A stretch of DNA of 64,000 nt, from NCBI GenBank assembly GCA_963721805.1, contig CAVRJY010000004.1, positions 96,001 through 160,000 of the forward strand, read 5' to 3'. Made by a program: the position numbers. Of this stretch, positions 21,001 to 27,000 are shown one piece after another. The stretch's first letter is position 1. Every line of letters begins with the position of its first letter. The stretch is from Nitrospirota bacterium (GTDB taxonomy: Bacteria > Nitrospirota > Thermodesulfovibrionia > Thermodesulfovibrionales > JdFR-86).

Positions 21001-24000
21001 GTTGCAGCCGCTCCTGCTCGGCCTGGGCCGCGCGTTTGAGGACTATCTGGCGCTGGCTCCCGATCGAGGCCTCGCTTTCCTTAAGCAGGGCCTCCTCCGA
21101 TCTGAGCGCCGCGTGCGACTGCGCGACGATGTCAGCGGCCGCATCGAGCGCGGCCTGCGCGGTATCGAACGCGGTCCGGGCCCGCTCGAGCCTCTCGGTC
21201 GAGATGACTTTCTTGTCATAGAGGCTCTGGGCGCGCTTGAGGTCAAGGCCGGCCTGGAGCTTCTGGGCCTCGCGCGCCTTGCGGTCGGCCTCGCGCGCCC
21301 CTGTCACGGCCTTCGCCGCGGCTATCGAGGTGCGCCTGACGGCGACGGCGGCGTTTAGTTCGCCGACGCGCTCTTGCTCGGCGGCAACCGAGGCCTCGGC
21401 GTCAGCCACGCGCGTGCGGTAGATGTCAGGGTCTATCTCAACGAGCACATCGCCTTCTTTGACGTGCTGGTCGTCGGTGACGTCCACCGCGTTGACCACG
21501 CCCGAGACCCTCGGGGCGACGGTATGCACCGTGCCCGCCACGAACGCGTCGTCGGACGAGATGTGGGTGCGCGTGTATCCGAGGTAGAAGTATCCGGCCA
21601 CGAGGCCGATGACGACGACCGTGCCGAAGATGAGAAACCCCATGCGCTTCTTGCGCGCGTTGCCGTTTACGGCGGCCGGCGGCTGCCCGGGCGAGTCTTG
21701 TTCATCGCTCATTTTATCTCTCCCTTGATCGCACCCTCGGGTGATGGTGGCGGCGCGGCCTGCGCGTATGCGGTATAGAGCGGTACGCCTGCGGCGTACA
21801 GGTATAGCGCCTCGGCGGAGCTCAGTGCGCTCTGGGCGTCATAGCGGCTGAGCTCGGCCCTCGAGAGCGCGGCCACCGCGTCGAGCACCCCGGTGGAGTT
21901 CTCATCGCCCTCCTCGTACCTTACGCGCTCTATGCGCAGGGCCTCGGTGGCCTGCTCCACGGCGTGCTCCGCGACCGGGACGCGCTCGCGCGCTGTCTGA
22001 AGCGTTAGAAGGGCGTTTTGCACCTCGAGCGTCGCCATCTGCACCGACTTGTCATACTCGGCCCGCATCGACTGAAGCTCGGCCCTGGCCCCCCGCACCG
22101 CGGCTACCGTAGCGCCGCCGGAGAATATATCCATCGTCGCCCCGGCGTACAGCGACCAGTTGCCCGGATGCACGACGTAGGGGTTTTCGGTATACGCATA
22201 GCCGCCCTGCACGAAGAACGTAGGCAGGAAATCGGCCCACTTGGAGCGTATCTCGGCCTCCTTGGCCTCGATGCGTATCCTCTGCGCCTTGAGGTCCGGC
22301 TTGTTCGCGAGCGCCGCGGCCACGGCGTCCTCATACGAAGGAAGCGGCGGGTGCGGCATCGAGGGGTCCTCGACCTTCACCGGCTCGGTCACCGGCAGCA
22401 GGAGCATCGCGTCGATGGCGGCCGAGCGCCGCACGACCTCGTCGTTCGTCTCTATCAGCCGGAGCGAGGCCTCGTCGCGGGCGACCCCGGCCTGCAGCAC
22501 GTCGTTGCGCGTGACCGCGCCGGCATCGAACTGCGCCTGCGCGTCGCCCAGGTGGGCCTCGACGCTTCGCTTGACCTCCTCGGCCACGGCCACGGCGTGG
22601 CCTGCGTCGATCAGCCCGATGTAGCCGAGTATGAAGTCGCGCGCCGAGGAGTTCGCGGTCTTAAGCGTCGTGGCCTTCTGGGCCTCGGCCGAGAGCTTCG
22701 CGGACTTCCAGGCCGACGCAGCCTTCCCGAAGTCGAACACGGTCTGCCGGGCCTGTATGCCGTATGCCCTGAACTCATCGTCAGACTGCGGTATGGTCAT
22801 CCCGAGCGCCTTGGCCTCGGGCTTGTACTGAAGCCAGGTCTTGCCCGTATAGGCCTGCACCTGGGGCAGGAGCGGCGCGAGCGCGCCCTGAGAGGCGGCA
22901 TTCGCGATGCCCTCCTGCGCCAAGGCTATCCGCGAGTCGTAGCCCTTCTCAACCACGGTCTCCAGCCCATCTTTGAGCGTCAGGGCATAGGCCGGGGTCA
23001 ATGCGGTCAGCATGGCTGCAAGCGCCAGAAGCGCCGTCAAAGGCCGGATCATGAGTTTCCCTTCCTGTTGAGCATCCCGTTTAAATAGATATCCACGCAC
23101 TGTTCGGCCCAGCGCCTGAGCGCGTTGCGGCCCATCTCGCGGCCGAACATGACCTCCTCGGTCAGGAAGACCGAGAATATGAGCTTGCTGAAAACCTGCG
23201 CCGCGTCCTCAGGGTTCATCTCCCTGAGCTCCCCGGTCTCCTGCCGCTGCCTGATGAACCCGGCGAGCACCGCGACGATCTCGTCAACCAGGCGGCTGTG
23301 CGCGGCGCGGACCTTCTCGGGGTATGTCGTGACCTCCGAGACTAAGATGCGGATGAAGGACTTCCGCTCCCTGAGGCCCTCGAGGTAGTGCGTGCAGATG
23401 CTTATCATGGCCTCGCGGACCGGCATGTCCCCGATGGCCTCGATCTGTTCCCTGAGCCTCCCAAGCGGGCTCCGGTGCTTGAGCGTCTCCTCAAAAAGCC
23501 GCTCCTTGCTGCCGAAGAGGCGGAATACGGTCGGCTCCGAGACGTCCGCGCGGTGCGCGATCTCTCGGGTCGAGGCGCCGAGGTAGCCGCGCTCGGCCAC
23601 GAGCGCGAGCATGGCCTCGAGGATGCGCTCGCGGGTGTGCTGCGGGTTGCCGATCCTGTGCGGCCGCACCGCCTTCGGCGCACCCGGCGCCGCCTTGATA
23701 TGCGCGCCATGCGCGCCAGTTGCCTTAACCGCCATGTCCCGGTCCACCTCCAGCGTTAGCGAATGTGTGTAAGTGCTTGCATAACAAAATATCATTTGCA
23801 GCAAGATGCTGTCAAGCGGGCTGGGGAGTTAAGGCGAGCGAAAGGCGCTTTGGGGCCGGTTGGCCCCCTCTTCTTGGAAAGAGGTGCCCGTGGCACCCCG
23901 ATGGTGTACCTGGGCGCACATAGAGGGCGAGTTTTCGAAGTCCAACGCAGCATCAAGCGATTAGGAGCGCTTTGAAGAGAGGCTCAGGTAAGTTTAACTT

Positions 24001-27000
24001 TCTTCTGTTTCTCGGCGAGCGAGATGATCTCGGCAACAGTGGTCGCATCCTCCGGGCTCTTGTCCCGTCTGATGAACCCTACCGCGCGGGGGAACCTGAG
24101 CGCATAGCCGGTGCCGGTCTCGTCGCGGCCGGCCGTATGCGAGGGCGAGCGCGTGATCTCATCCGCGGTTACGGTGATGACGAAGCGCGGCGTGAGCCAG
24201 GCGTCCGGGGTCATCTCTGAATCGACTCGCGCGTGGCGGTGCGGTATGCGGGCCTCGTCCAAAAGAGGCTTCAGCTCCATGAACTCCTCGTCCGTAAACC
24301 CGCTGCCGACCTTAGATACGGTCTTGAAGGTGTCGCTCTCGGGATCGTATACCGCGCCCAGAAGCGCGCCCAGCCCGAACCGCGCACGCGAGCCCCGCCC
24401 GGCGAAGTACCCGACCACGCAGAGGTCGACCGAGTCCGCGAGCTCGCCGCGGTATGAGCGTTTTAATTTAATCCAGTTAAAATTGCGTGATCCCGCTGCG
24501 TAGGGCGAGTCCGGCCTTTTTACGACCACGCCCTCAAGCCCGACCTCTATCGAGTGCTCGAAGAACCGGTCTATCTCGGCCGGGTCTTCGGTGACAAACA
24601 TCTCCGAGGGCACGATCAGCCCGCCGCCCTTGATAAGCTTAAGCAGCCTCCGGCGGCGCTCCTCATACCCAAACGAGATCAGGTCCTCGCCGTCGTGGTA
24701 CATCAGGTCGAAGGCGAAGAACTTAAGCGGCAGCGTACGGCTCGCCTCGGCCACGCCGTGCTTGCGCTTGCGCTGTATCGTGACCTGAAACGGCATCAGC
24801 TCGCCGGTCGATTCGTTGTGCACGAGGGCCTCGCCCTCGAATATCAGCTGCCGCGCCGGGAGGTTCGAAGCGGCCTCGACCAGCTCAGGGAACATCGCGG
24901 TCATGCGCTCCTGGTTACGCGAGAATATGTCGACCTTCTTACCGTCCTTGTGTATCTGGCAGCGGAATCCGTCGTACTTCGCCTCGACCGCGGCGCGGCC
25001 GATCTTCGCTATGATGTCCGCCGATGTCGGCAGGCGCTCGCACAGCGCGGGGCGGATCGGGTATCCGACGTGCACCTTGAAGGCCCGTATGCCCTCCATG
25101 CCCGACTCCTTAAGCGTGCGCCCGACGAGCCCCAGGTCCGAGCATAGGTTATAGGCGCGCTCCAATTCGGGCTTTAATCCCCGGTCGCCCTCGCCGAGCG
25201 CGAGGGCCTCAATCACGGTGCTGTCGCCCACTCCGAGGCGGAGCTTGCCGGCCACGAACCGCGCTGCGTACCTCGCCTCCTCGGGCGCGCAGGCCCTGAG
25301 CATGCTCGCCAGCAGGTTGAGCTTCTGGTCGACGCTGCCCTTGCCCGAGGTATGCGCTATGGCCATGAGTTCGTCGTACAGCCCGGTGACCGTGAGCGTC
25401 CCGTGGCCGGTGCCGAACTCCTCGGCCACCGCTCCGAGGTCCCCGGTGCGCTTGTACGCCTTCTCTACGCTCGCGGTCGGAGTGCCCGAGGCCTCCGAGA
25501 TCGCGCGGATCAGCAGCTTTTCGGACATCCCGATCTCGATGCCGTGAAACGGGGCCGCAAGCGCGCCCTGCGTGATGTAGATTATGCGGTCGATCTCGGC
25601 CGGGCGCGCGTCCTTAAAAAGTTCGGCGAGTATGTCGAACATCTCAAGCCGCTTGGCCGTGGCCTCGAGGCGCTTGAGGCAGGCGACGAGCTTCGAGAAC
25701 TTCATCGGCCCGGGCATGGTTATTTTTTCTTGGCCCTGGGCGGGATCGCGCCCTCGCCAAGCGCGGCCTCTATCTTTAGCCGCATCGCCTTGGCGGCCGC
25801 GGGGCTTGCCCCGCCGGTCGAGATCGCGATAGTGAATGCGCCGCGGCGGATAATGGAGGGGACTATGAAGGTGCAGAGCGAGGGGTCGTCGGCCACGTTT
25901 ACAAGCGCGCAGCGCGAGGCGCGGCTGACCGCGCGGTTGACCTTGCTGTCGTCCGTCGCGGCCAGGACGAGCTCGGCACCTTCGAGGTCGGACGGACGGA
26001 ACTTCCGCCTGACAAGGCTGATGCGGCCTTCGGACAGAGCGGCCTCTAGCGCAGGATTCAAGGCGGGGCTTATGACGGTCACGTCCGCCCCGGCATCGAT
26101 CAGGGAGGCCGCCTTGCGCGCTGCCACGGCGCCGCCTCCGACGACTACGGCGCGCCGGCCGCGCAGATCGAGAAACGCCGGGTAGTACAGCCCCGCGTTA
26201 CTTGGGGTTGGCGGCGATGTCTTTGGCCGGCTTTTTGAGGTCAGGGGCGGCGAGTTCTTTGGCCGCGCGGGCCGTATAGGGGCTGTCAGAGTATTTTTCC
26301 TTGAGTACCGCATAGTATTTCTGGGCCGCGTCCGCATGTCCGCCGCGCTTGTCGCAGTAGACGATGTAATATAGCGCCTCGGGCACGTTGGCGTTAGTGG
26401 GGTAGTACTCAAAGACGTTGAGCGAGCGTTCGGTTGCCCCCTTGCACCCCCCGCGGTCGAAGTCATACTTGGCGACCATGAACTCGTGGTCGGCCAGCAG
26501 GTCGCGGCAGCGGGCGATCTTGGTCGCGGTCACGTCGTAGAATGGGTTACGCGGGAAGTTGTCGTTGAGCTTCTTGAACTCCCCGAGCGCGCGCTCGGCG
26601 AGGGCGTATGCCCTGTCGTCGCCCTTTATCTGGTTGAAGTAGATCATCCCGACCTGATACTGGGCGTAGTAGGCATAGCGGTCCGAGGGGTAGACCTCGA
26701 GGAAGCGCCTGTATTCGTCTATGGCCTGCTCCGGCTCGTCGGCCTGGTAGAACGTGTCCGCCACGCGCAGCTGCGCCATGGCCGAGAACTTGCCGGTCGT
26801 GTCCTTGAGCTTCACGGACTGGTATTTCTGGCGCGCGTCGGTCCAGAGCTTCTTGTCATAGAGCGCGTTTGCGGCCGCGAACTCCTGCGCCGCGTCGTAC
26901 TGCACGGCCGGGGGCTTGACCGCCTTGGAGGAGCACGAGGCGAGCGCCGCGATCAGCCCCAGCGCCGCTATAACAGACAGGATTCTGGACAGGGATCGTT

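Follow-up and report, generated by a model that had tools for sequence, protein, structure and literature searches.

An archaeal-type ATP-dependent DNA ligase in place of LigA in Nitrospirota and its probable two-way exchange with the NAD-dependent enzyme

The window, by which we mean the whole 64,000-nucleotide stretch that was analysed, contains on its minus strand an intact open reading frame for an ATP-type DNA ligase with the DBD-NTase-OB domain plan (23984..25717), which gives 577 aa from the first ATG. The start is likely Met5 (573 aa), where the homologues in the alignment begin. Directly upstream lies a gene for the N-terminal, NAD-binding part of a sirohaem synthase (25720..26200, minus strand; its start is uncertain and the listed ORF reaches 26466), preceded by a BamD/YfiO lipoprotein gene (26198..27004, minus strand), and the order bamD-sirohaem gene-ligase is common to the genome studied here (G000) and to G111 of the same family. 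Genes for a TetR regulator and for TolC-type, HlyD-type and MFS efflux proteins follow downstream of the ligase (19008..23804, minus strand), and smc and gyrB, the latter in two frames, lie nearby (29510..36459, minus strand) as chromosomal context outside the finding. The ligase gene has a GC3 of 0.85, in line with its neighbours, and no Lhr, MPE, exonuclease, Ku or PrimPol repair gene was found among the 11 window neighbours scanned; the surroundings are an ordinary housekeeping context.

The Pfam domains DNA_ligase_A_N, _M and _C (PF04675, PF01068 and PF04679) follow one another in this order in the window ligase, the TIGR00574 model scores 424 bits against a cut-off of 217.8, and the closest solved structure is the crenarchaeal 2HIV (E = 1.5e-129), which confirms the initial annotation of one full-length ligase of this architecture. 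Motif I (KxDG) is intact, as are the motifs that we take to be III, IIIa, IV, V and VI. The form EAKYDGFR is present in 29 of 30 aligned sequences from the order, in agreement with the conservation of EAKYDGxR reported before. KxDG is described as motif I of ligases in the accessible part of PMC10244674, and K247, within EAKYDGFR, is most likely the adenylated lysine, as predicted from the sequence. The AlphaFold model of the orthologue from G242 (65% identical to the window ligase, P0001) has a pLDDT of 90; Foldseek returned 2HIV as its top match, at 45% identity, and the TM scores against DNA-bound SsoLig and LigI were 0.81-0.86, with LigI at 0.86. Three other assignments of the window ligase were rejected: the LigB equivalogs (PRK03180, 263 bits against 641; TIGR04120, 147.5 against 400), the LigD/NHEJ ligases (TIGR02779, 172 bits against 227.75, with no PE or PrimPol domains) and the Prochlorococcus AD-Lig P type, since the window ligase has PF04679 and no OB-2 domain (PF14743).

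No LigA was found in G000, whose assembly is 94% complete, in 9 contigs and indel-prone: PF01653 and TIGR00575 gave no match, tblastn with 10 LigAs of the order gave a best E of 0.12, and an HMM search over all six-frame ORFs of at least 25 aa left no trace. The absence claimed earlier is thus borne out, although the accompanying premise, that LigA is essential in all bacteria, already has exceptions in print. The window ligase is the single PF01068 match in G000 and the only DNA ligase found there. A search for a ligA scar in G000 found none; its cinA sits just upstream of recA, and no ligA-linked cinA paralogue was found in this genome.

Across the order, 31 of the 317 genomes carry an orthologue and 29 of these 31 lack LigA; the carriers are spread over 6 of the 13 families, matching the number of families given before for LigA-less genomes. 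The two enzymes had been called mutually exclusive, with the orthologue in no LigA-bearing genome. With all 317 genomes included the exclusion is nearly complete but not strict, as in G028 a 682-aa LigA and an orthologue are both intact and under selection, and G028 is the one genome of the 317 that clearly holds both native copies. G073 is doubtful as a second such case, its LigA being a fragment of foreign origin on a contig of 1,473 bp, and G110, previously listed with neither gene, has an orthologue here (65%), with the qualification that the two numberings may differ. Among the 219 high-quality genomes of the order, 28 lack LigA and 22 of them are carriers; two of the other six have a LigA broken at contig ends, and the four of 219 with neither gene are comparable to the rpoB miss rate (2 of 70). 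Fisher tests gave p values of 1e-22 to 1e-29, on which we do not rely because kin are not independent and the values are therefore overstated.

The ATP ligase occupies the genomic position of ligA in family f11 and in Nitrospiria. The f11 slot aspS-rluB-[X]-nth is seen in 17 genomes, with ligA in 8 and the ATP ligase in 9, and its flanks are 97.2% identical over 2,887 bp between G238, with LigA, and G242, with the ATP ligase. Nitrospiria share a second slot, behind metK, where MetK is 95-97% identical between G331 (ATP ligase) and three LigA genomes. The flanks of the G000 ligase have nothing in common with those of the two ligA loci of its family, and no in-slot exchange was seen in Aquificales among the 5 ligA and 8 ATP-ligase loci compared. 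In G238 the slot is filled by a LigA of foreign origin, with 42-43% identity to its closest counterparts among the LigAs tested, and a remnant of the end of the native ligA lies next to it; the native gene was therefore replaced, which is a direct case of LigA-for-LigA exchange, and a change from ATP ligase to LigA is suggested indirectly. In g93, ligA and cinA are in disagreement with their flanks (AU p of 0.007 and 0.04 for ligA), and dS between G239 and G230 is 0.62 for ligA compared to 1.53 for aspS. In g20 the two ligase genes lie at different loci, and the LigA is sister to that of G064, matching the species tree, which fits long coexistence followed by loss.

A dN/dS of 0.02-0.17 places the ATP ligase under purifying selection, as is the case for aspS and ligA. 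At the G376 locus the RNA data gave a flat 12.7-kb contig, probably DNA, and a few stray reads, and were uninformative on expression. The ATP ligases of the order group by GTDB family, with Nitrospiria as a separate clade, and their tree has 10 of 16 supported splits in common with RpoB and two in conflict, compared to 10 of 20 in common and seven in conflict for LigA. The agreement of the ATP ligase with the species tree speaks for a long presence in Nitrospirota and not for repeated import, and these sequences suggest that it was largely inherited vertically; some lineages seem to have regained LigA. The RpoB tree of 75 genomes has at least 15 state changes, and lnL is -67.6 for loss only and -47.7 with regain, in a carrier-enriched sample (25 of 31 carriers, 50 of 286 others), with root priors that differ between the models and one fit at extreme rates. 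Swapping in both directions accounts for the pattern better than loss alone does. Of the earlier proposal that the ligase displaced LigA in several lineages, the role as only candidate in G000 stands, while a simple one-way course by repeated import does not agree with a largely vertical ATP ligase and a LigA that seems to have returned in places.

There is strong support for the window ligase as the sole candidate for the replicative role, in G000 and in many of its relatives, because no other enzyme of G000 can fill the role, the gene is under purifying selection, and LigA's slot is held in two groups. We regard it as very probably the replicative ligase of G000, and a two-way exchange of ATP ligase and LigA as likely. 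The best explanation overall, which we favour without treating it as settled, is a replicative archaeal/LigI-type ligase that is interchangeable with ligA and was exchanged in both directions. The enzyme would adenylate K247 from ATP and might accept ADP or GTP too, like certain archaeal relatives (the donors listed in the part available of PMC10244674 vary between ATP, ADP, GTP and NAD); its DBD, NTase and OB domains would encircle nicked DNA, and it may seal Okazaki-fragment and repair nicks without PCNA. The ATP ligase gene would already have been present in Nitrospirota when the order and Nitrospiria diverged. The two genes would be functionally interchangeable, a cell with both soon dropping one, and the alternative ligase would return from relatives, often by recombination in conserved flanks, which would place both in one slot. 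More tentatively, and with slightly less confidence than doubt, we suggest a wider reading: an exchangeable cassette in which a PIP-less archaeal-type ATP ligase has filled the replicative role from a time before the main classes of Nitrospirota diverged, and also does so in a large block of Aquificales, with ATP and NAD alleles segregating within single genera via in-slot recombination, LigA regained several times and the bacterial form passed back to archaea. If this were true, the NAD/ATP split between the domains would be a historical habit and not a requirement of the bacterial replisome.

The most serious alternative, which we consider unlikely, is loss only: the ancestor of Nitrospirota would have carried the two enzymes, possibly as a tandem pair at the DUF488/DUF498 slot, and lineages would have dropped one of them for good. 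Where LigA is gone, the ATP ligase would still be replicative. This would explain the partial congruence of both ligase trees with RpoB, the selected pair in G028, and the presence of DUF488 and DUF498 beside either ligase in distant families; the glgC-DUF488-panC site, empty in the LigA-only genomes G026, G029, G030 and G012, is evidence of clean loss of the ATP ligase. However, both genes must have lasted to pairs whose flanks are 97% identical, although only one of 317 genomes is clearly dual; the fit is 20 log units worse, and the conflict of the g93 ligA and cinA with their flanks argues against it as well.

Repeated independent imports from archaea, after each of which the recipient lost LigA, are largely refuted within the order and very improbable overall. 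Archaeal records under the names Hydrothermarchaeales and Methanocellales reach 59% identity to P0001, the Hydrothermarchaeales one matches proteins of Nitrospirota at 64-70%, and the nearest solved structure is crenarchaeal. Yet the 59-60% type occurs in only two of the 38 Hydrothermarchaeota, the majority having ligases of 32-38% or 42-48%, and the clustering by GTDB family, with Nitrospiria in a clade of their own, is not that of separate arrivals. The archaeal 59% copies also lack the PIP loop, unlike native archaeal ligases, which suggests an origin from bacteria, the tree leaving the direction of transfer unsettled (AU p 0.13). The GC3 is like that of the neighbours; no relative was found in the viral contigs or phages searched, and the plasmids searched gave 29-33% LigB-like genes only.

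Judged from the sequences, this is an archaeal-type enzyme that would work without PCNA. Archaeal replicative ligases (S. solfataricus 2HIV, P. furiosus 2CFM) and human LigI have the same DBD-NTase-OB plan, but the archaeal enzymes have a PIP motif in a DBD loop (QKSFF in P. furiosus, PMC6212441) and a host PCNA, and the window clade has neither: its loop is 6 residues shorter than in native archaeal ligases, without the motif, and the PCNA domain PF00705 was found in none of the 31 carriers, the control matching in 4 archaea. DnaN is present in four of the five carriers tested; the predicted DnaN-ligase complex of the G242 pair scored 0.00, which counts neither for nor against an interaction.

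It is highly improbable that the absence of LigA is an artefact, with ligA hidden in the 6% that the G000 assembly lacks and the ATP ligase an accessory repair enzyme of LigB type. G000 is indeed incomplete, and LigB-class ligases, which have a domain plan in common with the window ligase, are said to be accessory and always additional to LigA (PMC5052709 and the accessible sections of PMC7470946, whose cluster 1 holds archaeal-like bacterial LigBs of proposed archaeal origin). However, PF01653 is missing in 106 of 108 carriers over the order, Aquificales (0 of 43 with a match) and the Nitrospiria sample (0 of 34), whereas single genes are missed at a rate of about 3%. Nine carriers without it are single-contig assemblies, seven of them Aquificales, which eases outside the order the earlier caveat that no LigA-less genome is closed, a single contig not necessarily being circular. 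A second Aquificales ATP ligase (40-45% to P0001), which has the architecture of the clade and comes from the same Aquificales but forms a separate branch, is always accompanied by LigA (36 of 36 genomes; 34 by PF01653 and two as pieces at contig ends), and these genomes are an internal control. Moreover, the ATP ligase lies in ligA's slot with contiguous flanks, and the Lhr-MPE-exonuclease cluster of the LigB class is absent among the annotated neighbours of the order loci, where some neighbours carry no annotation. Finally, that another enzyme (a Pab1020-type RNA ligase, LigD or an unknown fold) seals Okazaki fragments while the ATP ligase merely accompanies LigA loss has next to no probability, since the ATP ligase gene is what fills ligA's slot and PF01068 matches just once in G000 and in 16 others of the 22 scanned carriers of the order, despite TIGR01209 RNA ligases in some order and Aquificales carriers and LigD with an actinobacterial-type LigB (typed for G561) in G561 and G553. 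In those two genomes exclusion alone cannot name the replicative ligase, and the description of the enzyme as sole ligase thus applies to G000 and not to them. Besides this ligase, PF01068 has only a weak match in the seven single-contig carriers of Aquificales, and in the two of these scanned further that match is a TIGR01209 RNA ligase. LigB paralogues (31-35%) are present separately in the same taxa.

Replacement of LigA is itself known, and what is new in the exchangeable ligase described here is that it is wider and, apparently, reversible. In high-light Prochlorococcus marinus the ATP-dependent AD-Lig P replaces full-length LigA at LigA's genomic position (bioRxiv 10.1101/2020.05.11.089284), as the ATP ligase does in f11 and Nitrospiria. 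AD-Lig P has an OB-2 (PF14743) core and a small T4-like DBD, according to the part available of PMC7470946, where the window ligase has PF04679 and PF04675, and it marks one ecotype split, whereas here there are two more phyla, many state changes and evidence of LigA return. For Babela massiliensis (TM6), a reduced intracellular parasite, one phrase in the accessible text of PMC4378268 gives an ATP-dependent ligase in place of LigA, and that text does not deal with free-living Nitrospirota or Aquificales, with exchange in a slot or with a reversal. In its printed part the 595-aa Babela ligase has, by eye, K.DGFR, SRN and RKRKHG as in the clade, and may belong to the same subfamily as the window ligase. 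We found no report of LigA loss in Nitrospirota or Aquificales in the literature; the 2016 survey of bacterial ATP ligases (ref. 10 in PMC7470946), other subscription papers and the bioRxiv supplements lay outside the search and may hold cases.

The 106 LigA-less genomes in two further phyla contrast with the view in reviews that such ligases occur only in addition to LigA (PMC5052709 and, as far as accessible, PMC7470946), and limit ligA both as a drug target and as a universal marker. The use of NAD by bacteria has long called for an explanation (bioRxiv 2020.05.11.089284), and near-sister genomes that differ only in the slot ligase provide matched pairs for the cost and benefit of cofactor choice. 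Sources place the ligase clade in the cultured thermophiles Hydrogenobacter, Thermocrinis and Pampinifervens, which makes enzyme and complementation tests feasible and the clade a new source of probably thermostable ATP ligases.

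As the initial annotation held, G000 lacks the NAD-dependent ligase LigA and has one ATP-dependent ligase. Neither PF01653 (control positive in 11 of 14) nor TIGR00575 found a match in G000, tblastn with 10 LigAs of the order Thermodesulfovibrionales gave a best E-value of only 0.12, and an HMM search over all six-frame ORFs gave 6.3; the catalytic-domain profile PF01068 has a single match, the window ligase. The assembly, of 9 contigs, has a completeness of 94% and frameshifts in gyrB and dnaN, so the absence is not provable from G000 alone. This assembly appears indel-prone, with gyrB split across two frames (window 33990–36459), a ClpB-like gene, named by eye, in two ORFs (39379–42079) and a frameshifted dnaN (contig C1:71262–72354), and broken genes in G000 are therefore to be distrusted.

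The ligase itself (23984–25717, reverse strand) is an intact 577-aa ORF whose Met5 aligns with the start of most homologues. The archaeal/LigI-type DBD–NTase–OB architecture first proposed is confirmed by the order of its Pfam domains (DNA_ligase_A_N, _M, _C), a TIGR00574 score of 424 bits and its closest solved structure, 2HIV (E = 1.5e-129); the protein scores under the cut-off of the 12 other NCBIfam ligase models matched. The predicted model of the G242 orthologue (pLDDT 90) resembles archaeal ligases and human LigI with TM up to 0.86, and the catalytic motifs are kept in 91 aligned members of the clade of orthologues, one truncated row excepted. The enzyme is predicted to seal nicks in three steps via lysyl-AMP at K247, on the family basis given in the accessible part of PMC10244674, where ADP, GTP or NAD are also used by archaeal relatives; its cofactor is probably ATP. 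GC3 (0.85) is similar to that of the adjoining genes, which by Pfam scan are bamD, a sirohaem-synthase gene and an efflux operon; the bamD–sirohaem gene–ligase order is common to G000 and G111. Elsewhere in the window, GC falls to 0.53 (42001–44000) and 0.56 (50001–52000) versus about 0.63.

Across the order, PF01653 is present in 269 of 317 genomes and the orthologue in 31 (52–67% identity), in six families. The claim that the two enzymes are mutually exclusive holds for 29 of these 31 carriers, which lack both PF01653 and TIGR00575, but not strictly, as G028 has an intact LigA beside the orthologue. The other exception, G073, has a LigA fragment of 486 aa on a contig of 1,473 bp (C66), 46–48% identical to its best matches and placed outside the order's LigA clade; it is foreign to the order and may be a binning contaminant. 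The 28 of 219 high-quality genomes without PF01653 comprise 22 carriers, two with LigA broken at a contig end and four with neither enzyme. Since rpoB was not detected in 2 of 70 high-quality genomes, the genomes left without either ligase are at the level expected from incompleteness.

The pattern is not confined to the order. When genome contigs were scanned, members of the clade turned up in other Nitrospirota, Thermocrinis records and some archaea, PF01653 being missing in 25 of 26 such genomes (nine of them archaeal records). PF01653 occurs in 96 of 148 Aquificales genomes and in none of the 43 clade carriers there; 36 genomes with a different ATP ligase (40–45%) all keep LigA, two as contig-end pieces, and three of the nine genomes with neither LigA nor clade have LigA pieces. 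Seven Aquificales carriers have one contig spanning the genome length (1.37–1.81 Mb), each with one extra weak PF01068 match; both of those scanned are TIGR01209 RNA ligases. Source names assign the clade to Hydrogenobacter thermophilus, H. hydrogenophilus, Thermocrinis albus, T. minervae and Pampinifervens florentissimum. In a sample of 201 Nitrospiria genomes, PF01653 was found in 156, the clade in 34 (none with PF01653) and neither in 11; two carriers are single-contig, each with two further ATP ligases, which in G561 are LigD (with Ku) and PRK03180 LigB. Pooled over 666 genomes, 106 of 108 carriers lack PF01653.

Several side observations accompany these counts. Pab1020-type RNA ligases (TIGR01209; L428–L432) occur in LigA-less Aquificales and some carriers of the order. 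G414, numbered within the LigA-less Aquificales block and without a match to the window ligase, carries part of a LigA at the beginning of a contig (C4:2–535). The unclassified bacterium G317 (L069), without PF01653, encodes a 54% member close to the clade base and is perhaps a further phylum with the clade. The orthologue of G587, a LigA-less long-contig genome, lies in two frames (L204, C1:284430–286152), likely a sequencing indel. Nitrospiria ligA frames of 920–1000 aa (G552, G627, G647, G621, G615, G512) are possibly fusions.

In family f11, the two enzymes share one chromosomal slot. It follows aspS–rluB in 17 of 20 genomes (G225 has ligA elsewhere; G229 and G232 have short contigs), is filled by a cinA paralogue together with ligA in eight genomes and by the ATP ligase in nine, and is closed by nth–mqnA in 13 genomes where the contig extends; G224 differs downstream. 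G238 (LigA) and G242 (ATP ligase) share 97.2% identity along 2,887 bp of left flank and 87% in the right flank, and the flank tree makes them sisters with ATP-bearing G241 outside (98/99). The LigA of G238 is foreign, with 42–43% identity to the best matches in the set of LigAs tested, and next to it remain about 77 bp from the end of the native ligA. This 724-aa LigA lies behind the cinA paralogue (L405:3343–7961), with two unknown ORFs, DUF498 and a Phd/ParE-like pair at the locus. In Nitrospiria, the divergent gene after metK is ligA in G503, G520 and G530 and the ATP ligase in G329 and G331, with the same nitrilase gene next in G520 and G329. In G244, ligA is bordered by DUF488 and DUF498, as is the ATP ligase in G010 and G172. 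At the loci compared, no common slot was seen in G000's own family or in Aquificales. In genus g20 the two ligases are at different loci: G027 and G028 read glgC–DUF488–ligase–panC, and G026, G029, G030 and G012 have this site without a ligase. Because of the exclusion and the position in the ligA slot, it follows that the ATP ligase is the putative replicative ligase.

Two features of these neighbourhoods stand apart. Immediately upstream of ligA there is a second gene with a CinA C-terminal domain (L049:7635–8132; many loci in f1, f3, f5, f9, f10, f11 and f12); this gene is gone together with ligA where the ATP ligase occupies the slot. Such proteins are NMN deamidases and, as NMN is a product of LigA, this one may be its NMN recycling partner. 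In families far apart, DUF488/DUF498 genes adjoin one or the other ligase, frequently accompanied by endonuclease V or nth (L055, L058, L382, L394, L413), and are possible unrecognised DNA-repair partners.

In the ATP-ligase tree, members of the order group by family, branching agrees with RpoB inside G000's family, and Nitrospiria form a separate clade with Aquificales just outside. The gene is therefore an old one in the phylum Nitrospirota. Supported splits common with RpoB number 10 of 16 for the ATP ligase (2 conflicting) and 10 of 20 for LigA (7 conflicting). Its dN/dS (0.02–0.17) is comparable to those of aspS and ligA, also in G028 with both ligases. LigA-bearing G103 and G107 nest within ATP-bearing family f1, and LigA-bearing g20 members within an ATP-bearing clade. 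In g20, loss alone would also explain the pattern, its LigA being sister to that of G064 and matching the species tree. Exchange of the two ligases within the slot was nevertheless probably two-way: ATP-ligase presence requires at least 15 changes along an RpoB tree of 75 genomes (mean after shuffling, 21), lnL is −67.6 for loss only versus −47.7 with regain in this carrier-enriched sample (25 of the 31 carriers and 50 of the 286 other genomes), and ligA of genus g93 deviates from its flanking genes (AU p = 0.007 and 0.04).

We conclude that the displacement of LigA by this archaeal-type enzyme without a PCNA loop is real and far more widespread than in the published examples. In high-light Prochlorococcus, AD-Lig P has taken over the genomic position of LigA (bioRxiv 10.1101/2020.05.11.089284); that enzyme is of a different ligase class, and the in-place replacement is common to both. 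Replacement in Babela and TM6 is noted in one phrase in the accessible part of PMC4378268; the 595-aa Babela ligase, as far as that part goes and judged by eye, resembles our subfamily. The available sections of two reviews describe bacterial ATP ligases only in addition to LigA (PMC5052709, PMC7470946), and our search of the literature other than closed-access papers found no account of LigA loss in Nitrospirota or Aquificales.

In the tree, the clade is placed among ligases labelled Micrarchaeota and Marsarchaeota and among unnamed representatives, and Hydrothermarchaeales- and Methanocellales-labelled records are 59% identical to the window ligase. This type occurs in only 2 of 38 Hydrothermarchaeota; three ligase types are seen there (L221–L250; 32–38%, 42–48% and 59–60% to the window ligase), so ligase exchange occurs in those archaea too. 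Native archaeal ligases have a Q-x-x-L/F motif in a loop of the DBD; in P. furiosus this motif is the PIP box QKSFF, according to the part of PMC6212441 available. The loop is 6 residues shorter in the clade, its archaeal-labelled copies included; PCNA was found in none of 31 carriers, and DnaN in four of five genomes tested. We infer that the clade ligase is adapted to a cell without PCNA and was likely passed back to archaea; a tree test of the direction of transfer gave AU p = 0.13. The ligase of a Nitrospirae record (L096) has a 15-residue insertion at the site of the lost PIP loop, containing an E-T-L-F stretch that resembles a clamp-binding motif.
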